Positions 5,768 through 22,850 of a stretch of 64,000 bases of DNA are shown here, one piece after another. Under the pieces are notes generated by a model. That model was not told the DNA's origin and ran no database searches. It saw only the letters and a list, made by a program, of their open reading frames with translations. The position numbers and the translations under genes were made by a program. The first letter of the stretch is position 1, and each line of letters begins with the position of its first letter. Source of the stretch: an uncultured Chloroflexia bacterium (GTDB lineage: Bacteria; Chloroflexota; Limnocylindria; Limnocylindrales; CSP1-4); the NCBI GenBank assembly GCA_963746845.1, contig CAVVCZ010000005.1, forward strand, positions 256,001 through 320,000. Direction: 5' to 3'.

Positions 5768-5820
5768 CGCCCGGCGCCCGGACACGCGGAGTGTCCCCCA
5801 GTTGACAGGCGGGTCGTCCC

Positions 5821-5840
5821 GCGCGGGACGCGTCCCGCGC
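5821..5840. promoter_or_regulatory. Perfect 20-bp palindrome upstream of the repeat-peptide gene
   Basis: GCGCGGGACG|CGTCCCGCGC, between TTGACA (5802) and TATCGT (5853). Confidence 0.4.
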
Positions 5841-5925
5841 TCGGCATCCGCGTATCGTGGGGCCGATCAACCAGATTCCGAACGACACCTCACCAGATTC
5901 GGGGTCGATGACGGAGGGACAGGCC

Positions 5926-6216
5926 ATGCGGAAGATGAACCGGCTCCCGCGCGAAGAGGTGACCACCGACGACGGACTGCCCGTCGACGGGCTCCCGGCG
6001 AGCAACGATGTCGAAGGCCACCGTCAGGAGGCCGTCGATAGCCTCGGACCACGGCTGCCCGGCACGGGTGGCGACGATCTGCGGCGGCCGTCCGGCGGGG
6101 GCGAGATCGGCGACGAGAACGACGTTCAGGGACACAGCCTCGATGCCAACGTCGGCCCGCGGCTCCCCGGCACCGGTGGCGACGATCTGCGGCGGCCGTC
6201 CGGCGGGGGCGAATGA
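5926..6216 (+). CDS. Small acidic Gly/Pro-rich two-repeat peptide (96 aa), precursor-like
   Basis: GGAGGG RBS at 5913-5918; two NDV[EQ]GH-x6/8-GPRLPGTGGDDLRRPSGGGE units; hairpin downstream. Confidence 0.75.
   Translation: MRKMNRLPREEVTTDDGLPVDGLPASNDVEGHRQEAVDSLGPRLPGTGGDDLRRPSGGGEIGDENDVQGHSLDANVGPRLPGTGGDDLRRPSGGGE
6067..6212 (+). repeat. Direct repeat: identical 38-bp blocks at 6067-6104 and 6175-6212
   Basis: GGTGGCGACGATCTGCGGCGGCCGTCCGGCGGGGGCGA occurs twice, 108 nt apart (in frame). Confidence 0.95.
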
Positions 6217-6249
6217 CGATCCGGTAACAACGCCTGGCTCACTGTCCAG

Positions 6250-6276
6250 CGCCCCGCCCAGCCCCGGGCGGGGCGC
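6250..6276 (+). terminator. GC hairpin after the repeat-peptide gene
   Basis: CGCCCCGCCC-loop-GGGCGGGGCG; no U-tract. Confidence 0.45.
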
Positions 6277-6302
6277 ACATTCGTGCCCTCGGAGCGTCCC
6301 TG

Positions 6303-6408
6303 GTGAGTCGATTCGCGACTCGGAATCACGTCCTCCGTGATCGGCCATCTCCGAATTCCGGCATGGACGAGCGCGCCACCGCCTGAAACGAGTCGCCACG
6401 CGACTCAC
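6303..6408. repeat. Inverted pair of 20-bp palindromic REP-like units
   Basis: GTGAGTCGattcgCGACTCG (6303-6322) and CGAGTCGCcacGCGACTCAC (6389-6408) are mutual reverse complements apart from the loop. Confidence 0.6.
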
Positions 6409-6470
6409 GTTCGGGGTGCCGCGCTCCCCGCCGCGGCTCGTCCCGCTGGCGGGCGGACGCCGGGCGACCG

Positions 6471-7307
6471 TCAGGGGCGGTTCGCGGTCGCCGCGAGGAT
6501 CGTCTTGGTCTCGAACGGGGTGACGCCCGGATGGGCCGCGCGGATGCGGGCCGCGAGCCCGGCGATGTGCGGCGCGGCGAAGCTGTTGCCCGTCGCGACG
6601 ATCCGACTGCCGTCACGCCAGGCGACGTCGACGTCCAGGCCGTGCGCCCCGAACTCGACCGGCGGGTGCGGGTTGTAGAACCACGTCTCCGCGTCGTGGA
6701 CATCGTGGGCCGCCACCGAGACGACGGCGGCGAACAGGGACGGGTAGCTGGCGATCGCGACGTTGTTCGCGGCGCTGACGAGCAGGCAGTTCGCGAAATA
6801 GGCCCGGTCGGCCAGGTCGTGCAACGTGGCGAACATCGCCTCGCTCCGGGACGACAGGCTGAGGTTGACGACCGACGCACCCTGGGCGATCGCCCAGTCG
6901 AGACCGGCCGCGAAAGCCAGCCCCTTGCCGCGGTTGTCCGACCCGAGCACGCGCACGCTCACGAGCGTCGCCTTCGGGGCCAGGGCATGGACGATCCCGG
7001 CGCAGGCGGTGCCGTGGCCGACCGCATCGATCGGGTCGTCCGGGATCACCCGCGCGTCATCGCCGTCGAGCTCGACCCGGACGCTCTCGGTGAGGGCGCC
7101 GCCGATCGCCGGGTGCGCCGCCTCGATGCCCGAGTCGATCACGGCGACCGTGACGCCTGCGCCGTCGCCGACTCCGAACGCCCACGCCCGGTCGATGCCC
7201 GGGAACGGCGCCTCGCGCACCAGGTCCGGGCGATGGTCCCGGGCGAATGCCTCGGCCCACGCCGGCAGGACCGCGGACGGCCCGTCGCCCGCCGGGGCGC
7301 CCGTCAC
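6471..7307 (-). CDS. Cytoplasmic S8 subtilisin-like serine peptidase (in frame with the upstream GAF ORF)
   Basis: Triad VIDSG / HGTACAG / GNSFAAPH; no signal peptide; probable own GTG start at 7307. Confidence 0.9.
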   Translation of the reverse strand: MTGAPAGDGPSAVLPAWAEAFARDHRPDLVREAPFPGIDRAWAFGVGDGAGVTVAVIDSGIEAAHPAIGGALTESVRVELDGDDARVIPDDPIDAVGHGTACAGIVHALAPKATLVSVRVLGSDNRGKGLAFAAGLDWAIAQGASVVNLSLSSRSEAMFATLHDLADRAYFANCLLVSAANNVAIASYPSLFAAVVSVAAHDVHDAETWFYNPHPPVEFGAHGLDVDVAWRDGSRIVATGNSFAAPHIAGLAARIRAAHPGVTPFETKTILAATANRP

Positions 7308-8144
7308 CGGCGTCGTCCCGCCGTGCCGCGCGGTCCCGCGCCGCCGCGCAGCGCGCCGGACGAGCACCGCGAGCAGCTCGCGGACGAGGTCGAGCTCGCC
7401 GGGATCGGCTTCCCGGAGCCGGGCGACCTCGTCCGCCAGCGCCCACAGGGGATCGTCGGGCCCGTCGGCCAGACCCGCCGTCGCATCGCTCACGATCGCG
7501 TCGATCTCGGATTCCGAGATCGGATCGGACCCGCCGTCAGGGACGGCGACGGCCGACAGGACGGTTCGGATCAACGAGGCGGTGTCGCGCTCGACGCGGC
7601 TGCTCCGGATCGCGACCGTCGCCTGGCGCGCGAACACCCCGGCCAGCTCGACGTCACGCAGGTCGAACCCCGCGTCGCCTCGCTTGTCGAGGACCTCGAG
7701 CACCCCGAGGATCCCCTCGTCGTCGATGAGTGGGACCGCGATCAGGGAGCGCGGCACATATCCGGTCTGCTCCGCCGTGGACCGGCCGAACCGTGCGTCG
7801 GCGGCGACATCCGCGAGGGCGATCGGCTGGGCGGTCGCGAAGACGTAGCCGGCCACGCCCTGGCCGCTGTCGATCGCCAGCCCGACCACGCCCTGGCCCT
7901 GGTCGCCGGCCGCGACCACGAAGACGAGCTTGTCGGTGGCGGCGTCGTACAGGGCGATCGATGCGGCCTCCGCACCGAACAGCCCGGCCGTCGCCTCCAC
8001 GATCGATCGCAGGACGGCCGACCCGCCCGGATCGGCGAGCCGCTTCGCGGCTTCGATCCGGAGGGCGATCGCCCGGAGCGCGATCCGCAGCCGATCGTCG
8101 CTCGCCGGCTCGGTCGGATCGAGCGGCGGCTGGTTCGCGCTCAC
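7308..8144 (-). CDS. GAF-domain protein (no stop before the S8 domain in this assembly)
   Basis: AASIALYD...GQGVAGYV...SLIAVPL...LGVLEVLDK...F; GTG overlaps the Crp stop (GTGA). Confidence 0.85.
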
Positions 8145-8848
8145 CGTTCGATCGTCCCCGCCAGGCGCTCGGTGTCCGGCACGACGAGCTGGTCCCGCTC
8201 GACGCGGACGAGACCCTGGTCCGCGAGCTCCGCGAGCAGCCGGTTCACGGATTGGCGCGAGCCGCCGATCATCCCGGCGAGCTCGGATTGCGTGTAGGGC
8301 CACGGGATCCGGACCGACCCGTCCGGATCCCGCGATCCCGCGGCCTCCGACAGGCGGACGATCCGCGAGGCGAGTCGGCCCGGAAGGTCCAGGAAGTGGA
8401 GGTCCTCGACGTGCCCGGTCAGACGTCGGATCTCGGTGGCCAGCGATGCGAGCAGGGCCCGGCGAAGGCCGGCGTCGGAGTCGATCAGGGCCAGGAACGC
8501 ATCGCGGTGGAGGACGAGCGTCTCGGTCGCCTCGACGGCCACGATCGTCGCGGAGTGGGGTGCGCCGTCGAGGATCGCGAGCTCGCCGAAGAACTCGCCC
8601 GGCCCGAGGATCGCGACGATCGCCGGCTCGGCGCCCTCGTCGCTCGGCAGGACCACCTTGACCGAGCCGCTCGCGAGAACGAACAGGGCGTCGCCCGGGT
8701 CGCCCTGGTGGAAGATCGTCTCCCCGCGTCGGAACCGACGCACCCGCAGGACGCGGACCAGCGTGTCGATCGCGGCGTCGTCGGCCGCCCCGAACAGGCC
8801 GCAGCCTCGCAGGGCGTCCCGTGCCACCCGCTCGTCGCCGACCGACAT
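8141..8848 (-). CDS. Crp/Fnr family transcriptional regulator
   Basis: cNMP domain (FFGELAILDGAPHSAT) and HTH (TQSELAGMIGGSRQSVNR). Confidence 0.93.
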   Translation of the reverse strand: MSVGDERVARDALRGCGLFGAADDAAIDTLVRVLRVRRFRRGETIFHQGDPGDALFVLASGSVKVVLPSDEGAEPAIVAILGPGEFFGELAILDGAPHSATIVAVEATETLVLHRDAFLALIDSDAGLRRALLASLATEIRRLTGHVEDLHFLDLPGRLASRIVRLSEAAGSRDPDGSVRIPWPYTQSELAGMIGGSRQSVNRLLAELADQGLVRVERDQLVVPDTERLAGTIER

Positions 8849-9004: not shown

Positions 9005-9631
9005 TCAGGTCCGGGCGACGGGCCGCATCGGGTAGAGACCGACGACGACCGGGCTGCGCGGGTCCATCGACAGCTCATAGCCGATCTCGCCGCCGCGCAG
9101 CAGCTCGCCGAGCAGCGATCCCTCGCGCTCGGGCAGACCGACGAAGACCCTGCCGGAGCCGAGATCGACCGGGGTCACGTCGTCGTCGCCGCCGTTGATC
9201 CCGAACCGGCGCCGAAGCTCGTGCATCGGGACGTACGGCCGGCTCTTGATGAAGCGGCGGAGCTGGGGAGCCGTGCAGGACGCACCGGGCGGGCCGTCGT
9301 GGGCGACGCCATTCGGGCCGTGGAACACGGGCGGGCCGGGGGCATGGAATCCGTTCTGCCCCGGCACGGAACCGTCCGGGACCGGGCCGACGGGTCCGGG
9401 CGGCGGCGGCACTGCGTCGGCGATCGTCGAGACGGCGATCGCCGCCGGCGCGGGCGCCGCGACCATGGCCGGGGGTGGTACCGGGACGGCGGCATCGGTG
9501 CCCCGGGTCACCTCGGGCGGGCTGGAGGCACCGACTGACGAGGCGCCGCTCGTGGGTCCGGGTGCGGCCTGGGGGGGCCGGGAGTGACCGTTCGAGTGGT
9601 GCGGGCGTCCGCCGTGATGGCGCCGGCTCAT
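9005..9631 (-). CDS. Hypothetical protein with a Pro-rich N-terminus and compact C-terminal domain
   Basis: Low-complexity N-terminus, then CTAPQLRRFIKSRPYVPMHELRRRFG... Confidence 0.7.
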   Translation of the reverse strand: MSRRHHGGRPHHSNGHSRPPQAAPGPTSGASSVGASSPPEVTRGTDAAVPVPPPAMVAAPAPAAIAVSTIADAVPPPPGPVGPVPDGSVPGQNGFHAPGPPVFHGPNGVAHDGPPGASCTAPQLRRFIKSRPYVPMHELRRRFGINGGDDDVTPVDLGSGRVFVGLPEREGSLLGELLRGGEIGYELSMDPRSPVVVGLYPMRPVART

Positions 9632-11368: not shown

Positions 11369-11869
11369 CTAGTCCAGCGACTGGGCGAGGTGATGGAAGA
11401 CGTCCCGGGCGGTGACCACGCCCGTCGGCCGCCCGTCCTCGACGATCGGGATGTGGCGGAAGCCCCCGACCGCCATCTTGTTGATCGCGACCGCGATCGT
11501 CTCGTCGTGCCGGAGGACGACCGGGTCGTGCGTCATCAGCGCCCCGATCGAGCGATCCGGCGGCGACGTCCCGGCCACCTTGAGCACCGCGTCACGGTCG
11601 GTGAAGATGCCGACGAGCCGGCCCCCGTCCACGACGAGGACGCAGTCGATCCCCTTGTCGTGCATGCGGCGGATCGCCTCGTCGACGTCGGTCGACGCGT
11701 CCACGATCTCCGGCGGCACGACGCCGAGCGCGTCCAGGTGCTTGCCCAGCAGCCGGCCGTGGAAGGCGGTCGCGGGCTCCGGGACGTCGCGTCCCGCGAG
11801 GTCCGACCCACAGTTGTCGCAGACGTCGGCCCCGCTCAGGTTCTCGTATCCACACGTCGGGCAGCGCAT
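11369..11869 (-). CDS. Zinc-ribbon plus CBS-pair protein
   Basis: MRCPTCGYENLSGADVCDNCG; LVGIFTDRD; FRHIPIV. Confidence 0.88.
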   Translation of the reverse strand: MRCPTCGYENLSGADVCDNCGSDLAGRDVPEPATAFHGRLLGKHLDALGVVPPEIVDASTDVDEAIRRMHDKGIDCVLVVDGGRLVGIFTDRDAVLKVAGTSPPDRSIGALMTHDPVVLRHDETIAVAINKMAVGGFRHIPIVEDGRPTGVVTARDVFHHLAQSLD

Positions 11870-11880
11870 GGGTCCCTCGC

Positions 11881-12930
11881 CTAGTCGACGGTCCAGGTCT
11901 CGCCGCTCGCGAGGACCGATGCCAGGTCGCCCTCGCCGGTCGCCGCGATCGCGGCGGAGATCTGCCCCTGGACGAGCTGGTCGTGGGTCGGGCGGGGCAC
12001 GGCCCGCAGGACGCCGACGGGGACCGGGTAGTCCGGCCAGAACATCCGGGACAGCATCAGCGCGAGGTACGGCTCCGGGGCCGCCTCGTCGTGGACGAGG
12101 AGGTCCGACTCGCTGATCCCGTTCTCGCCGATCGTCACGACCTCCGGATGGAGCCCGCGGAGGCGGATGCCCTTGTCGCGATCCTTGCCGAAGATCATCG
12201 GCTTGCCGTGCTCGAGGACGAGCATCCGGTCCTCGCGGACCTCGCGGTCGGTGAAGTCGCGCCACGCGCCGTCGTTGAAGATGTTGCAGTTCTGGAGGAC
12301 CTCGACGAACGTCGAGCCGTGGTGAAGCCCGGCCCGCTGGAGCGTCTGCTGGAGGTGCTCCGTGTGGGTGTCGACGCTCCGGGCCACGAACGACGCCTCG
12401 GCGGCGAGTGCCACCGTCAGCGGCTGGATCGGCGTGTCGACCGTGCCGGCCGGCGTCGACTTCGTGCGCTTGCCGAACTCGGACGTCGGCGACGCCTGGC
12501 CCTTGGTCAGACCGTAGATCCGGTTGTTGAACATCACGAGCGTGATGTCGACGTTCCGGCGCATCGAGTGGAGGACGTGGTTCCCGCCGATCGAGAGCGC
12601 GTCGCCGTCGCCGGTGATCACCCAGACCATCAGGTCCGGCCGCGCCGCCTTGAGACCGGTCGCGAGCGTCGGAGCACGGCCGTGGATCGTGTGGAACCCA
12701 TAGGTGTTCATGTAGTACGGCAGCCGGCCCGAACAGCCGATCCCGCTGATGAAGACGATGTTCTCCTTCGGCACGCCGAAGTCCGGCATCTGCTTCTGGG
12801 TCTGGGCCAGGATCGAGTAGTCGCCGCAGCCCGGACACCAGCGAACCTCCTGGTCGGACACGAAGTCCTTCCGGGTCAGCTGGATGATCTCGGCGTTCTC
12901 GGGGCTGAGGGCGGGCATCGATTCAGTCAT
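11881..12930 (-). CDS. korB: 2-oxoacid:ferredoxin oxidoreductase beta subunit
   Basis: WCPGCGD, SGIGCS, GDGD...NN..YGLTKGQ. Confidence 0.95.
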   Translation of the reverse strand: MTESMPALSPENAEIIQLTRKDFVSDQEVRWCPGCGDYSILAQTQKQMPDFGVPKENIVFISGIGCSGRLPYYMNTYGFHTIHGRAPTLATGLKAARPDLMVWVITGDGDALSIGGNHVLHSMRRNVDITLVMFNNRIYGLTKGQASPTSEFGKRTKSTPAGTVDTPIQPLTVALAAEASFVARSVDTHTEHLQQTLQRAGLHHGSTFVEVLQNCNIFNDGAWRDFTDREVREDRMLVLEHGKPMIFGKDRDKGIRLRGLHPEVVTIGENGISESDLLVHDEAAPEPYLALMLSRMFWPDYPVPVGVLRAVPRPTHDQLVQGQISAAIAATGEGDLASVLASGETWTVD

Positions 12931-14782
12931 GTGCGACTCCCAGGATCCGCTCGGCCTGGGCGACGATCTCGGCGATCGTGAACGGCTTGCCACGGACGCG
13001 GTTGTAGCCCTCGGCGTCGATCAGGAACTGGGCCCGGATCAGCATCGAGAGCTGGCCGAGGTTGACCTCCGGGATCAGGACCCGACGGTAGCTCCGGAGG
13101 ACCTTCTCGGTGTTCGACGGGAACGGGTTGAGGTGGCGGAGGTGGGCGTGGGCGACGCTCCGGCCATCGCCGTGCAGCCGCTCGACGGCGCTCCGGATCG
13201 CGCCGTAGGTCGAGCCCCAGCCGAGGATCAGCAGATCGCCCCGGTCCGGACCGAACACGTCGAGCGGCGGGATGTCGTCCGCGATCCGGGCGACCTTCGC
13301 CTGGCGGAGGAGCTGCATCCGGTGGTGGTTGTCGGGGTCGTAGCTGACGTTGCCGGTGATGTCCGCCTTCTCCAGCCCGCCGATCCGGTGCTCCAGGCCC
13401 GGCGTTCCGGGGATCGCCCACTTCCTCGCAAGGGTCTTCGGGTCGCGCTCGTACGGGTGGAACGTCTCCTTCTCCGTCCAGTTCCGGACGGAGATGTCCG
13501 GCAGGTCCTCGACAGACGGGATCTTCCACGGCTCCGCGCCCGTCGCGAGGAACGCGTCAGAGAGGTACACGACCGGGGTCACGTACTTCAGCGCGAGCCG
13601 CCACGCCTCGATCGCCATGTCGAAGCACTCTCCCGGCGTCGCCGGCGCGACGACCGGCAACGGCGAGTCGCTGTTCCGCCCGAACATCACCTGGAGCAGG
13701 TCCGCCTGCTCGTTCTTCGTCGGCATGCCGGTCGAAGGCCCGGCCCGCTGGACGTCGACGACGACGAGCGGGAGCTCGACCATCACGGCCAGCCCGAGCG
13801 CCTCCGACTTCAGCGCGATGCCCGGCCCGGACGACGCGGTCAGCCCGAGCGCCCCGCCGTAGCTCGCGCCGATCGCCGCGCCGATCGCGGCGATCTCGTC
13901 CTCGGCCTGGAAGGTCTTCACGCCGAAGCTCTTGTAGCCCGACAGCTGGTGGAGGATGTCCGAGGCCGGCGTGATCGGATAGGACCCGTAGAAGAGGGGC
14001 CGGTCCGCGAGCTTCGAGGCGGCGAGCATCCCCAGCGCCGTGGCCTCGTTGCCGGTGATGTTCCGGTACGTGCCGGGCGGGAGATGGGCCGGCGCGACCC
14101 GGTAGTGCGTGTGGAAGATCTCGGTCGTCTCGCCGAACGCGTAGCCGGCCTTGACGGCGCGGATGTTGGCCTCGGCGACGACCGGCCGCTTGCCGAACTT
14201 GTCGTTGATCCAGTGGATCGTCCCGTCGAAGTCCCGGCCGTACAGCCAGAACATGATCCCGAGGGCGAAGAAGTTCTTCGTGAGGTCCTTCTGCTTCGAC
14301 GTCATGTCGAGGCCCTCGAGGGACCGCTCGTTCAGCGTGGAGATCGGGATCTCGAAGACGCTGAATTGCTTCAGCGAGCCGTCGGACAGCGGGTTCGCGG
14401 CATAGCCGGCCTTCTGGAGGTTCTGGGCGGTGAACGCGTCGCTGTTGACGATCAGCGCCCCACCGGCCGGCAGATCGATCACGTTCGTCCTGAGGGCCGC
14501 CGGGTTCATCGCGACGAGGACGTCGGGCTGGTCGCCCGGTGTATGGATGTCGCTCGAGCTGAAGCTGATCTGGAAGCCGGACACGCCCGGCAGCGAGCCG
14601 GCCGGCGCGCGGATCTCGGCCGGGAAGTCCGGAAGCGTGCTGATGTCGTTGCCGTAGACGGCGGCCGTACGGGTGAACTGGGTGCCGGTGAGCTGCATCC
14701 CGTCGCCGGAGTCGCCCGCGAAGCGGATGGTGACGCGATCGAGCTCCTGGGTCTGCGGCTCGATCTCGCGGGTCGTGGTCAC
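12923..14782 (-). CDS. korA: 2-oxoacid:ferredoxin oxidoreductase alpha subunit
   Basis: AGDSGDGMQ, YPITPAS, EDEIAA and QRAGPSTG motifs. Confidence 0.95.
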   Translation of the reverse strand: MTTTREIEPQTQELDRVTIRFAGDSGDGMQLTGTQFTRTAAVYGNDISTLPDFPAEIRAPAGSLPGVSGFQISFSSSDIHTPGDQPDVLVAMNPAALRTNVIDLPAGGALIVNSDAFTAQNLQKAGYAANPLSDGSLKQFSVFEIPISTLNERSLEGLDMTSKQKDLTKNFFALGIMFWLYGRDFDGTIHWINDKFGKRPVVAEANIRAVKAGYAFGETTEIFHTHYRVAPAHLPPGTYRNITGNEATALGMLAASKLADRPLFYGSYPITPASDILHQLSGYKSFGVKTFQAEDEIAAIGAAIGASYGGALGLTASSGPGIALKSEALGLAVMVELPLVVVDVQRAGPSTGMPTKNEQADLLQVMFGRNSDSPLPVVAPATPGECFDMAIEAWRLALKYVTPVVYLSDAFLATGAEPWKIPSVEDLPDISVRNWTEKETFHPYERDPKTLARKWAIPGTPGLEHRIGGLEKADITGNVSYDPDNHHRMQLLRQAKVARIADDIPPLDVFGPDRGDLLILGWGSTYGAIRSAVERLHGDGRSVAHAHLRHLNPFPSNTEKVLRSYRRVLIPEVNLGQLSMLIRAQFLIDAEGYNRVRGKPFTIAEIVAQAERILGVAHD

Positions 14783-14789
14783 GCTGGGG

Positions 14790-15299
14790 TCAGCCCCCTT
14801 CGGCTCGGTGCATCGTCTGATGGGGTCGGGGCGGCAGGTTGAGGAGCTCCTCGGGGAACGACTCGGCGAGGTACTTCAGGACGTCCTGCGGGCGGATGAC
14901 GCCCTGGAGGGTGTCGTCGTCGTCGAGCAGCGGCACGTTCCGGTAGCGGCCGGTCTGCATCAGCTCGATGGCGTGACGGACGGTCTCCTCGAGATGGAGG
15001 TGGTGCGGCTTCGTCGTCATCAGCGTCTCGACCGGCTGCGACAGGTCGATCGGGGGCACGTCGCCACCGACGAGGCGACCGAAGATGTCGCGCTCCGTCA
15101 GGACCCCGGCGAGGCGGCCCGAGGCGTCGACGACGAAGACGGAATCGCCCGTCCCGGTCCGGCGGATCTCCGCCAGGCACGCGCTCAGGCTGGTCCCGGG
15201 CGGGACGGTCACCGGCTCCCGGCGCCCGACGCCCTGGAGTCGCTCGTCGAGGAGGGTCGGGACCCGGGCGACGACGGCGCCCTCGGTGAGGTCGTTCAC
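14790..15299 (-). CDS. CBS-pair protein
   Basis: LAGVLTERD and YRNVPL; GTG lies 7 nt after a TACACT -10 box. Confidence 0.85.
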   Translation of the reverse strand: MNDLTEGAVVARVPTLLDERLQGVGRREPVTVPPGTSLSACLAEIRRTGTGDSVFVVDASGRLAGVLTERDIFGRLVGGDVPPIDLSQPVETLMTTKPHHLHLEETVRHAIELMQTGRYRNVPLLDDDDTLQGVIRPQDVLKYLAESFPEELLNLPPRPHQTMHRAEGG

Positions 15300-18168: not shown

Positions 18169-18282
18169 TTCGGCGAGTCGGCGATCTCTGCAGACCGCCC
18201 GGCACGAACATTGAACCGCGGTGCCGGTGGGACCATCAATGGCGGGTGAAGCGCTCGAATGGGCGCGACGGGAGAACCGCCG

Positions 18283-18834
18283 ATGCGGGCCGGGCTGGTC
18301 GAACGGGCGAGGGCAGGCGACGACGTCGCCTTCTCCGAGCTCGTCGACCTCGACGGCGACGGCTGCTATGCGATCGCGTACCGGATCCTTCGCGACGCCG
18401 AGCGTGCCCAGGACGCCGTCCAGCAGGCATTCCTCCTCGCATGGCGCCAGCTCCCGACGCTCCGTGATCCCGAGCGCTTCTCGCCGTGGCTCCGGCGACT
18501 CCTCGTCAATGCCTGTTACGAGGAACACCGGCGTCATCGGCGATGGATCTCCCGAATCCGGGTCCTGCCGGTCGACGGACCGGCCAGCCCCGACCCCACG
18601 GTCTCGGTCGACGACCGGGATGCCCTCGACCGCGCGTTCCTGCGTCTGACGCCGGAGCACCGCGCGGTCTTCGTCCTGCACCACCACGCGGGGCTCGGCC
18701 TCGCCGACATCGCCGACATCGTCGGCGTGCCGGTCGGCACGGTGAAGTCCCGCCTGCATCACGCCACCCGATCCCTGCGCGCGGCGATCGTCGCCGACAG
18801 CCAGGTCGATTCCCCGGAGGTACGGCCGGCATGA
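18283..18834 (+). CDS. ECF sigma-70 factor
   Basis: DAVQQAFLLAWR (region 2) and VGTVKSRLH (region 4); GGAG RBS. Confidence 0.92.
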   Translation: MRAGLVERARAGDDVAFSELVDLDGDGCYAIAYRILRDAERAQDAVQQAFLLAWRQLPTLRDPERFSPWLRRLLVNACYEEHRRHRRWISRIRVLPVDGPASPDPTVSVDDRDALDRAFLRLTPEHRAVFVLHHHAGLGLADIADIVGVPVGTVKSRLHHATRSLRAAIVADSQVDSPEVRPA

Positions 18835-19655
18835 CGCAACCACGTGATCCGGATGTGATCATCGCCACGTGGCTCGACGACGGCCCGGTCACCCTTCCGG
18901 ACGAGACCAGGCGGGCCATCTCGGTCGGTCTGCGAACGCAGCCTCGCGCACGGCGGCTGGCGATCCTTGGAGGGTCGTCCATGTCTCCGCTCAATCGCTT
19001 CGTCGTTGCCGCTGCCATCGTTCTCGCCGTCGGCGGCCTCTCGGCCTTCGTGCTGTCCAATCGCGCCGGCGGCTCCGGCGGCACGCCATCTCCATCCGCG
19101 TCGGCAGCTCCTTCGGCCACGCCTTCGCCGTCGCCGTCGCCGTCGATTGCGCCGTCACCGACCGCGTCCCTGCCCAGCACGGCCGGGTGGGTCACGTTTA
19201 CCTCGAGCCAGTACGGCTACCAGATCGCTTACCCCCCGACATGGGACCCGGACATCCAGGCCACACGAAACTGGGTGCTGGCTACGGACCGGCTGGCTCC
19301 GCCGGCGAGCGGGATGAACGGGTCCGCCGATCACTTCATCGGGGACGGGACGGGAGGCACGACCGCCGTGACGGGCCTGGCGGCCGATGTCCCCGCCGGC
19401 ACGTCCGAGGACGCGTGGCTCGCCGCCTACTACGCGGACGGCGCGTTCTGCGAGACGCTGCCGGTCTTCCTGCCCATCACCGTCGACGGCCACGCGGGCC
19501 GGCTCGACCCCTGCTATGACGCTCAGGCGATCGTCTTCATCGGAACGCGCGTCTACGTCTTCGCGATCCACGCGACCGACAACCAGCCGCTCTTCAGCGC
19601 ATTCCTGTCGACGGTCAAGTTCCCGTCGGCCTCGCCCAGTTCCAGTCCAGGCTGA
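18831..19655 (+). CDS. Putative anti-sigma factor (WLxxGP N-terminus, one TM, Ser/Pro linker, extracellular domain)
   Basis: ATGA-coupled to the sigma gene; IATWLDDGP; PsbP-like tail (SSQYGYQIAYPPTW). Confidence 0.75.
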   Translation: MTQPRDPDVIIATWLDDGPVTLPDETRRAISVGLRTQPRARRLAILGGSSMSPLNRFVVAAAIVLAVGGLSAFVLSNRAGGSGGTPSPSASAAPSATPSPSPSPSIAPSPTASLPSTAGWVTFTSSQYGYQIAYPPTWDPDIQATRNWVLATDRLAPPASGMNGSADHFIGDGTGGTTAVTGLAADVPAGTSEDAWLAAYYADGAFCETLPVFLPITVDGHAGRLDPCYDAQAIVFIGTRVYVFAIHATDNQPLFSAFLSTVKFPSASPSSSPG

Positions 19656-20953: not shown

Positions 20954-22257
20954 TCAGGGCGATGGCGGGTTGGTGATCCAGTGTCCGACGTAGCCGAACC
21001 CGACTTCCATCTCGCTGAGGTCGTCACCCTGGATGTTCACCGGCCGGAGATCTGTGCCGTCCGGGTTCATCATCCAGAAGAAGTTGTTGAAGAGGAACAC
21101 GTGCTTGCCATCGGGCGTGTAGTCGGCTGCGATCACGCCACCGCCGCGGGTCAGCCGCTGCGGGTCCGATCCGTCCGGGGCGATCGTGTAGATGTCGGCC
21201 GTCCGTTTTGGGTCGCCGAACGGCACAGGGGCCATCGACAGCGGGCCGTCGAGGAACAGGATCCGCGATCCGTCGGGCGACCAATGGGGATTGCCCGGGT
21301 AGGTCATCCCGGCGATGGAGATCCGGCTGGTCTTGTCGGTCGCGATATCCGTGACGTAGATGGCCCCCGAGTCCGGCACTCCCTCGGACTGCCAGTGGAT
21401 CCGCCCGAAGGCAATCTTCGTCCCGTCCGGTGACCAGGACGGCCGCTCCGGGACGTCGTTGTCGTTCGGTCCCTGGGTGGAGGTGAGGGCGATCTGTTGC
21501 CCGCTGACGAGATCCTTGATCATCAGGAACGCCCTCGTCTCCTGGACCCGCACGAAGACGACCTTCGTCCCGGTCGGGTCGAACGCGGGATCCAGGTCTC
21601 CGCATGGGGCGACCGGGCACGTCGTCGCGACCCTCTTCAGCGACGTGCCGTCGAGATTGGCGGTCCACAGGGACTCGCCGTTCTGGTCGGCGTCCTGGAA
21701 GACGATCTTCGTCTGATCCGGGGAGATGGCGCCGGAGGTCTTGCCCGCGGCCGGTTGGCTCTTCAGGAACTCGACCGCCGTCGCGCCGGTCATCGTCTTC
21801 GGGTCCATCCAGTAGAAGCGCCGACGATCGATGTGATAGTCGCCATTGGCGGGCTCGGAGCCGTCCGGCGCATTGCCGGCGTGCTCCATGAGGATGCGCC
21901 CTGGGAGCGCCGAGTAGTCGACGGGCTTCGCACTCGGCTGGACCGAAGGCGAGGCGATCGCCGCGACGGACGCGATGGGCGTGCTCGCGCTCGGGGACGG
22001 CCCGCCGACGCTCTGGTTGCCGCCGGGTCTGAGGATGAGCGCCCCGCCGACAACAACGACCGCGATCGCGATCGCCGCCGCCGCGAGGCGGGCAGTGGTG
22101 GACATGGATCGAACCCTCCACGGGACACGGATGTCCCGTTCCTGGTGTGTCGTCTGGATGAGCAGGAGAGCGGTGTCGACGGCCTGGATCGGAGCGTGGT
22201 CGGCCCCTCTTCCAGCCACGACCGGGCGGCACGTTCGAACGAGCGATCGTCGGTCAT
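20954..22257 (-). CDS. Putative anti-sigma factor with a TolB-like PD40 beta-propeller (frameshift near 22198)
   Basis: MTDDRSFERAARSWLEEGPT, then (shifted) HAPIQAVDTALL...TM...; repeated WSPDG/SPD motifs; ATGA-coupled to the sigma gene. Confidence 0.75.
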
Positions 22258-22850
22258 GCCAGCCGCCCTTCCCGGAGCACGGGCTGCGCGTCGTCGACCA
22301 CGGCGGCACGCAGGCCCTGGGTTGCGTAGTGGAGGCGCGATCGGGCCGTCCCGGCCGGGATCTCGAGCATCTCGGCGATCTCGACCAGGGGCAGCCCGAG
22401 GTAGTGGTGCAACACGAACACCGCCCGCTGCTCGACAGGGATCCGCCGGAACGCGCGTTCCAGCTCGTCGCGGTCGACGACGGCCGAGGCGTCGTCGGGG
22501 GTCTCCGGTCCGTCGACCGGCAGCACCCGGACGTTCGCGGTCCACTGGCGGGACCGCTGTGCCTCGTCGTAGCAGGCGTGGACGAGGATCCGATGGATCC
22601 AGGCCTCGAAGCGATCGACATCCCGCAGGTGCGGGAGCCGGCGCCAGGCCAGGACGAGGGCGTTCTGCAGTGCGTCCTCGGCGAGCCCCGTGTCGCGGAG
22701 GATCCGGTGGGCGACCGCGTAGAGCGCGTCACTGACCTGGTGCACCAGGATGGCGAACGCCTCTCGGTCTCCCCGACGGGCCCGTTCCACGAGGTCTCGG
22801 TCCACCTCGACCCCTCGACGTGTCGCGACCATTCGGCCGCGATCACCCAT
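22254..22850 (-). CDS. ECF sigma-70 factor (paralog of 18283)
   Basis: EDALQNALVLAWR and GTARSRLHYA; true start may be slightly downstream. Confidence 0.92.
   Translation of the reverse strand: MGDRGRMVATRRGVEVDRDLVERARRGDREAFAILVHQVSDALYAVAHRILRDTGLAEDALQNALVLAWRRLPHLRDVDRFEAWIHRILVHACYDEAQRSRQWTANVRVLPVDGPETPDDASAVVDRDELERAFRRIPVEQRAVFVLHHYLGLPLVEIAEMLEIPAGTARSRLHYATQGLRAAVVDDAQPVLREGRLA

Follow-up and report, generated by a model that had tools for sequence, protein, structure and literature searches.

We analyzed a window of 64,000 nucleotides from an uncultured Chloroflexia bacterium (contig CAVVCZ010000005.1, positions 256,001 to 320,000 of the forward strand; its genome is called G000 below), in which a gene for an acidic peptide with repeated Asp-Val-x-Gly-His (DVxGH) motifs converges on genes for a small subtilase of family S8, a GAF-domain protein and a Crp/Fnr-type regulator. 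A sequence-only reading of the same stretch had proposed that these four genes belong together, and this view is borne out by the way in which they travel together across loci. The features at this locus, in coordinates of the window, are as follows.

5792 to 5807, plus strand: candidate Crp/Fnr-type palindromic box TGTC-N8-GACA upstream of the peptide gene, conserved in the genus and a predicted binding site
5853 to 5858, plus strand: putative −10 hexamer TATCGT, at a conserved distance from the box
5926 to 6216, plus strand: acidic two-unit DVxGH peptide of 96 residues, a predicted precursor (open reading frame translation; no Pfam or NCBIfam family in profile searches)
6007 to 6021, plus strand: motif 1, DVEGH, residues 28–32, proposed as P5–P1 with a cut after His, a register suggested by the ElxP and PatA motifs
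6121 to 6135, plus strand: motif 2, DVQGH, residues 66–70
6044 to 6104 and 6152 to 6212, plus strand: two 61-nt direct repeats, 93% identical at a spacing of 108, coding for the GPRLPGTGGDDLRRPSGGG block
6471 to 7307, minus strand: small prodomain-less S8 subtilase, 278 residues from the GTG at 7307 (Pfam S8, E value 4.5e-25; subtilisin fold model with a predicted local distance difference test score of 94.9)
7136, 7016 and 6584, minus strand: triad D58, H98 and S242 of the subtilase, with N182 as oxyanion residue (by alignment)
6854, minus strand: Ser152 of the subtilase, at the position of subtilisin Gly127 (by alignment to subtilisin)
7304 to 8144, minus strand: GAF protein, with a GAF domain at residues 43–179 and a helical tail (Pfam GAF, E value 5e-18), read through into the subtilase as assembled
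8141 to 8848, minus strand: Crp/Fnr regulator (cNMP_binding, E value 1e-27; HTH_Crp_2, E value 5e-16), overlapping the GAF start by 4 nt

The repeat peptide and its linked subtilase

The 96-residue peptide and the two units first quoted from it are found exactly in the translated frame, which is present in one copy in G000 and encodes a product with a pI of 4.6, zero Cys and zero aromatic residues. The earlier parse into conserved flanks around variable cores of 6–8 residues, modeled on cyanobactins, did not survive comparison with relatives: only DxxGH is kept across the family, with D-V-x-G-H as the shared element, and the second block (GPRLPGTGGD) is confined to the window's genus and close kin. 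Peptides have between 1 and 10 units, and the stretches between motifs are not related from one lineage to the next. A crude, uncorrected comparison of 21 related sequences gave ratios of nonsynonymous to synonymous polymorphism of 0.11 for the DVEGH codons, 0.54 for the GPRLPGTGG block and 1.05 for the variable stretch that had been taken for the cores. Directly after the stop codon, an 11-bp GC-rich inverted repeat with a 6-nt loop and no T tract was seen by eye (6249–6276); it is possibly a terminator or stabilizer between the convergent genes.

The peptide and the subtilase share a distribution. The tallies given here and below take in one unpublished genome (G010) as one row, and no claim depends on it alone. 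A subtilase match was found in 28 of 36 genomes of the same genus and in none of 24 genomes of the sister family, while the peptide was matched in 26 of the 36, all of them subtilase-positive; all 8 subtilase-negative genomes were without it. The subtilase-positive genomes without a peptide match are one whose contig ends in the subtilase gene (G019) and one with a different DTEGH repeat before crp (G034). The convergence of the peptide gene on the subtilase operon, already read from the window, recurs in 25 of 29 relatives' loci. The closest named homologs come from Candidatus Limnocylindrales (Chloroflexota), and one relative's subtilase is 86% identical to that of the window. Across a draw of 401 genomes from the phylum the subtilase is present in 45 (G000 included), and it also occurs in 3 plasmid records, with no match in phages; a draw of 30 genomes from the phylum of another bacterium (G456), at an E value of 1e-60, yielded 0 of 30 beyond G456 itself, a sample too small to define the range. 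An Atlas search returned one Chloroflexota cluster at 0.91 with low recognition, which serves as a lead only.

The co-occurrence of short DV[EQ]GH genes with such proteases, on which the sequence-only reading had staked its case, holds in a wider survey: of 127 unique loci with a called subtilase, 103 have a small gene carrying an acidic [DE][VT]x[GA][HYF] motif no more than 6 kb away from it. Because this motif was defined from the peptides themselves, its decay with distance serves as the control. It is carried by 118 of 233 small genes within 2.5 kb of the subtilase, then by 27 of 280, 8 of 184 and, at 7.5–10.5 kb, 2 of 219, over a background of 16 of 1537 genes in G000. The gene caller missed some peptides and subtilases (re-checked in part, with nine motif-less loci not re-checked), so these counts are lower bounds.

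The intact triad and missing signal peptide that had been ascribed to the subtilase also stand, the latter as judged by eye: D58, H98, S242 and N182 are invariant across 108 aligned family members. The enzyme has no I9 prodomain and, in the alignment, no long insertion relative to subtilisin. Its N-terminal LPAWxExF is conserved (L14, P15, A16, W17 and F21 in 84–101 of the 108 rows), and this short extension could be auto-inhibitory. Residue 152 aligns with the Gly of subtilisin SLG, which we take to be a wall of the S1 site, and it covaries with the last residue of the peptide motif, being Ser in 80 of 80 loci with a His motif and Gly in 10 of 10 loci with a Tyr motif (108 rows, 18 of these unlabelled); the Tyr group is about one clade, accounted for by only 2 changes on a quick tree built from 54 of the 108 rows. 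Ten loci labelled later agree (Ser with His in L115, L122, L132, L135, L139, L143, L147, L148 and L237; Gly with Tyr in L137). In addition, residue 126 is basic in 78 of 80 His-type loci and in 2 of 10 Tyr-type loci, matching an acidic versus a neutral P3. The idea that DVEGH mimics the DxxGH catalytic motif of subtilases was rejected because the Tyr variants follow the pocket residue. Members of the same subfamily are also found fused to kinase-like domains (P0126, P0127, P0129, P0131, P0136, P0160, P0161), an ABC transporter (P0149) or a LuxR domain (P0155).

The GAF-S8 pair in other peptide gene clusters

The pairing of GAF protein and subtilase extends to gene clusters for peptides that are ribosomally synthesized and then modified post-translationally (RiPPs) of the class IV lanthipeptide, YcaO-TfuA and radical S-adenosylmethionine (SAM) types; at the leader/core junction, the precursors of these clusters have [DE]V-x-[GA]-[HYF]. 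Two such clusters encode a class IV LanL that scores over the cut-off (L137 and L128; 707.9 and 675 versus 650), and their precursors, which give weak NHLP-clan matches, have leaders ending in DVEGY or EV[AR]GY before Cys/Ser/Thr-rich cores; two similar clusters (L125, L127) have the motif EVSGY, and the LanL of L127 falls below the cut-off. A YcaO-TfuA-like protein accompanies an NHLP-clan precursor (48.8 versus a cut-off of 40) with EVRGY in L141, and radical SAM genes accompany an aroma-sacti precursor (61.3 versus a cut-off of 30) with DVQGY in L129. On the Streptomyces plasmid NZ_CP108138, a radical SAM gene, an aroma-sacti precursor (EVQAH), a cyclase, the subtilase and the GAF protein lie in one run. 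A motif at the leader end is found in L128, L137, L141, L129 and L237, and not at the window locus. In the available part of a study of StsA/BlaA precursors (PMC10288494), 7 of 30 rows examined (of 36) carry [DE]Vx[AG]H, including 5 among the 8 long-leader group 10 rows; the short StsA type is without it in these precursor rows.

Further peptides of this kind were seen beside the same pair. One locus (NZ_CP108138.1, L237:16064-17633) encodes a peptide built of three WCGxHQ units with EV[VI]AH motifs, for which no NCBIfam family was found, next to a second radical SAM/SPASM gene and a P450. Others (L124:10205-11247, L126, L130, L131, L134) encode helical-leader precursors ending in [DE]VQG[YF], with Trp/Tyr-rich cores and up to three in tandem; none of five scanned had an NCBIfam match. 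The motif also occurs near the subtilase in a family of predicted membrane proteins with 2–3 N-terminal DVxGH motifs followed by a hydrophobic helix and a low-complexity tail (L113:4558-5082, L114:5699-6325, L120:8225-8962, L172:17217-17837), possibly membrane-tethered substrates, and before a conserved basic helical peptide of ~40 residues that follows DVEGH, by itself in some cases and at the end of multi-unit precursors in others (L110:4968-5180, L177:8026-8265, L175:1950-2231) and is a candidate for an active product. Neither was found in G000.

It might be argued that the window peptide serves a separate purpose as a disordered acidic protein, for instance metal binding by DxxGH, and is co-regulated with the subtilase without being handled by it, as the Asp, Glu and His of the motif and the His-rich units of some relatives' peptides (L132, L148) would allow. 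This we consider quite improbable, since the His is swapped for Tyr or Phe in step with the subtilase pocket residue and RiPP clusters have the motif at the ends of their leaders.

No tailoring enzyme for the peptide core is encoded at the window locus, as had been noted from the window, and in the 92% complete G000 genome there was no match to YcaO (PF02624; control positive in 5 of 14) or SPASM (control positive), whereas LanL queries in tblastn gave a kinase-region match only; a LANC search of G000 carries no information, as its control was silent. With no modification enzyme found in these searches, the window peptide does not count as a RiPP in the strict sense. The proposal that it is a substrate or RiPP-like precursor for the subtilase nevertheless gains from the linkage and from the motif at leader ends, both of which are consistent with a RiPP-type precursor. 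A stricter form of this proposal, in which the peptide is a cyanobactin-like precursor whose cores RQEAVDSL and SLDANV are excised and cyclised, would account for a repeated motif in the PatA register and for a cytoplasmic S8 enzyme, but it is very hard to credit: the locus has a single subtilase without a long insertion relative to subtilisin, this enzyme scores 24.8 bits against the PatA/PatG model TIGR03895 (cut-off 421), the genome searches just described found no YcaO or SPASM and no more of LanL than the kinase region, the second flank is conserved only in close kin, and the supposed cores evolve neutrally.

Regulation, the wider module and a proposed processing circuit

The arrangement upstream of the peptide gene is conserved. 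A TGT-N9-GACA box, which we take to resemble a CRP site, precedes 18 of 18 peptide genes of the genus, and its center lies 52.5–53.5 nt from the −10 hexamer in 16 of these 18 loci (53.5 in the window). A stricter pattern is found before 28 of 32 related peptide genes, a circular count in that the pattern was drawn from them, and before 30 of 121 other motif peptides versus 10 of 1310 other genes; taken alone in the window, the box is not significant (0.55 expected). A Crp site had been placed at 5800–5860, and the candidate box was found instead at 5792–5807. A simple scan of the window for sigma-70 promoters and terminators returned nothing, and TTGACA within the box was rejected as a −35 element because ~45 nt separate it from the −10. 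The recognition helix of the regulator reads RQSVNR. A second Crp, 57% identical and with the phosphate-binding Arg kept (G000:C4:408278; L061 7227-11095), has a box of this type ~115 nt upstream, with a cyclase-AAA gene nearby.

The coupled Crp, GAF and S8 genes of the sequence-only reading require one amendment. The regulator, the GAF domain and the subtilase are all confirmed, but the latter two are not separate here, as they form one 557-residue frame (8144–6471, minus strand) with no stop between them in the assembly. In relatives, the two genes occupy different frames at 29 of 29 loci, and 72 of 118 GAF-S8 pairs (duplicate loci included) overlap by 4 nt. The window retains this GTGA overlap at 7307–7304, out of the GAF frame, and by eye is 2 nt shorter than its relatives near 7350. 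Neighboring genes have no frameshifts relative to two relatives, and contigs from public sequencing runs, which covered only small parts of this stretch and included no listed RNA run, did not decide at the junction between a sequence error and a real fusion; shorter GAF-S8 fusions were found by Pfam in 5 of 22 long representatives scanned, of 150 listed. As to the cNMP gating that had been proposed for the protease, model and fold search put the GAF domain near cAMP-binding GAFs and just as near non-nucleotide GAFs (PtsP/DosS), which does not single out a ligand, and from the NKxxFxxxDE motif of the phosphodiesterase/CyaB type it conserves D[KR]...F...D and not the N and E.

Analysis of the 127 loci, whose flanks are often incomplete, places a GAF gene near the subtilase in 120, a crp gene in 103, a major facilitator superfamily (MFS) transporter in 86 and a cyclase in 38. 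The typical linked transporter has a C-terminal domain for binding cyclic nucleoside monophosphates (cNMP), which retains the phosphate-binding Arg wherever the cassette was captured, and the linked cyclase is a zinc ribbon-cyclase-AAA-TPR protein, so the cyclase that had been expected in such neighborhoods is part of a wider module. An MFS-cNMP gene lies near the subtilase in 20 of 20 genus loci. The window locus has neither a linked MFS-cNMP nor a linked cyclase, and the remark that no cyclase is visible in the window holds, as none of the 27 matches to PF00211, the class III cyclase domain, in the 3.6-Mb G000 genome falls there. Elsewhere in G000 are an unlinked cyclase-AAA-TPR gene (C2:78441-82277; 43–51% to the linked ones) and an MFS-cNMP of another subtype (C1:382826-384559; 45–48%). 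The G000 locus is a reduced version of the module, in which the linked transporter and cyclase are lost.

This reduction could mean that the locus is a decaying relic, with transporter and cyclase gone and GAF and subtilase fused by a frameshift, that no longer makes a peptide signal. The transporter found at all 20 genus loci is missing here, the full GAF-S8 fusion is unique among the loci examined, and 8 of 36 congeners have no subtilase at all. Decay is nonetheless improbable in our view, given that the triad, both motifs, the box and the −10 are intact, the subtilase is still 86% identical to that of a relative and keeps its GTG start, the unlinked cyclase-AAA-TPR and the other type of MFS-cNMP are present in the genome, and fusions of a shorter type exist among 5 representatives.

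The explanation that we favor, with moderate confidence, is that a dedicated S8 enzyme of the leader-peptidase type would cut a Crp-induced multi-unit peptide after DVxGH into linear peptides, with the GAF protein as switch and with export by the cNMP-binding MFS transporter in complete loci. The peptide would be the dedicated substrate of the neighboring cytoplasmic subtilase, and the subfamily would read [DE]-V-x-[GA]-[H/Y/F] as P5–P1 and cut directly after it. The position of the motif in RiPP leaders, together with the register of ElxP and PatA in the available part of their source, suggests that DVEGH is read with His as P1. Because a multi-unit precursor in Limnocylindria comes without a tailoring enzyme, cutting after each DVxGH would give linear peptides, with predicted lengths in the window of 32 (~3550 Da), 38 (3915 Da) and 26 residues (2551 Da). 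Crp would drive the peptide gene from the box at 5792, and the GAF protein would be a constant partner of the protease and probably its switch. In relatives, the transporter with its cNMP-binding domain and the cyclase-AAA-TPR sensor would complete the circuit, which suggests a signal-controlled release of a peptide message. On the sequence comparisons made here, this S8 group is most likely an undescribed subfamily of leader peptidases.

A more ambitious version, possible but doubtful at present, is a peptide signaling circuit relayed by cNMP: the cyclase-AAA-TPR protein would sense released peptide and make cNMP, Crp would induce a hypervariable precursor, the GAF-switched subtilase would cut it after DVxGH, and the cNMP-gated MFS transporter would export lineage-specific units, while the GAF-S8 pair would double as a portable, signal-gated leader peptidase across RiPP classes.

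It is important to set out what weighs against the processing of the peptide by this route. No motif gene turned up in the DNA retrieved for four loci (L133, L144, L145, L149), and in Miltoncostaea (L236) an NHLP-like gene after S8-GAF is without the motif (two small open reading frames translated). Since the Tyr group is about one clade, the pocket covariation amounts to one or two events. The phosphate-binding cassette of the window's Crp keeps GE, but His98 replaces the Arg that binds phosphate in Escherichia coli CRP, which weighs against simple cNMP control; across 100 cluster members this position is His in 44, Arg in 46, Thr in 1 and unparsed in 9. An orthologue of the genus-type MFS-cNMP was not found in G000, where the best matches, at ~35%, are to other MFS proteins, so export here would need another route. 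The presence of the motif in a membrane protein family and before a helical peptide means that it may be a general docking tag. Finally, 14 of 32 related peptides have their last motif at most 4 residues from the C-terminus, an arrangement that fits an inhibitor or bait no less than a precursor.

This last point bears on a different role, in which the peptide, induced by Crp, serves as a multivalent inhibitor or decoy whose DVxGH units or C-terminal products fill S1–S5 and quiet the prodomain-less subtilase, the true targets being other DVxGH proteins, for instance the membrane protein or helical peptide of relatives. Subtilisin propeptides provide a precedent, as they inhibit in a product-like manner through their C-termini. 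The freedom with which unit number and inter-motif sequence vary, the missing I9 prodomain and the other DVxGH-bearing families of relatives are consistent with such a role. However, RiPP clusters have a single motif, placed at the leader/core junction, purifying selection acts to some degree on the inter-motif block (0.54), 86 of 127 loci have a linked transporter, and the other DVxGH families were not found in G000, so inhibition is unlikely, though less so than the remaining alternatives, and cleavage of the peptide as a substrate is the account carried forward below.

Other genes of the window were noted in passing. Upstream of crp, a gene at 9005–9466 (minus strand) encodes a conserved C-terminal domain, CTAPQLRRFIKSRPYVPMHELRRRF, that is clustered in 58 loci and has no Pfam family. 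At 11369–15299 (minus strand), two CBS-pair genes flank an alpha/beta pair resembling 2-oxoacid:ferredoxin oxidoreductase (named by eye), syntenic in the genus, and at 18259–19655 and 20957–22832 lie two genes for extracytoplasmic function sigma factors, each followed by a predicted membrane-anchored partner.

Relation to known systems and implications

Among characterized enzymes, the nearest parallel is ElxP, the epilancin 15x leader peptidase. In the available part of PMC10885120, ElxP is a cytoplasmic S8 enzyme recognizing (D/E-5)(L/V-4)X2(Q-1), a motif that D-V-x-G-H matches in register, and the cut by PatA follows G(L/V)E(A/P)S. ElxP has Gln at P1, whereas the enzyme described here would have His, Tyr or Phe, and it differs further in its constant GAF partner, its multi-unit unmodified substrate and its linkage to Crp, MFS-cNMP and cyclase; the likeness drawn to ElxP is one of motif register. 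PatA/PatG acting on PatE in cyanobactin synthesis offer a cytoplasmic subtilase, a multi-unit precursor and an x-[LV]-E-small-x recognition register, and DV[EQ]GH shares that register with the PatA motif but not its letters; in contrast, no PatG, AYDG follower, heterocyclase or C-terminal domain of unknown function is found at the window locus. QhpE, with QhpC, is likewise a small subtilase of the cytoplasm, which takes off a leader before export, according to the part of PMC7876137 that was available. The window's subtilase scores 103 bits against the QhpE model NF049966, one of its two best NCBIfam scores and below the cut-off of 165, but no qhp genes are among its recurrent neighbors and its substrate would not be an enzyme subunit.

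AmyP-type S8 enzymes of class III lanthipeptides are also leader peptidases with an acidic, Val-containing motif, (T/S/A)EVE in the available part of PMC10885120; this motif differs from that seen here, and the synthetases linked to the present pair score as class IV LanL. Intracellular subtilisins (ISPs) resemble the window enzyme in having no signal peptide, no I9 prodomain and a short N-terminal extension, but its VLPAW does not fit their propeptide motif [LVI][IFLV]P[YFH] (LIPY/F), as given in the available part of PMC6220982. ISPs are, in addition, without a dedicated substrate gene or a GAF partner. In eukaryotes, Kex2, a subtilisin-family protease, cuts tandem units of repeat precursors (yeast alpha-factor, fungal Kex2-processed repeat proteins) into short linear peptides; because this happens in the secretory pathway and at dibasic sites, it is an analogy only. 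With its intact triad and, as judged by eye, no signal peptide, the window's subtilase is probably a cytoplasmic enzyme like leader peptidases of the ElxP/LanP type, and the system would work like ElxP or PatA on a repeat precursor, yet it falls outside the definitions of cyanobactin proteases, QhpE and ISPs.

A search of the literature, with subscription papers outside its reach, gave no description of this module and no report of DVEGH/DVQGY-type motifs with RiPP terms or with S8 plus GAF. New here are the leader-end motif common to several RiPP classes, the covariation of the S8 pocket with that motif, the Arg-to-His change in Crp and the fused, reduced locus.

If the favored explanation is correct, the rule that [DE]V-x-[GA]-[HY] is followed by a cut would predict which mature products arise from uncharacterized lanthipeptide, thioamide and radical-SAM clusters of Chloroflexota and Actinomycetota. 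A compact leader peptidase accepting many cores, with a P1 preference that may depend on one residue, would also be made available, as would a rare RiPP-type protease with a constant sensor partner. The locus would further be a candidate for a system of communication among soil bacteria that are abundant and uncultured.

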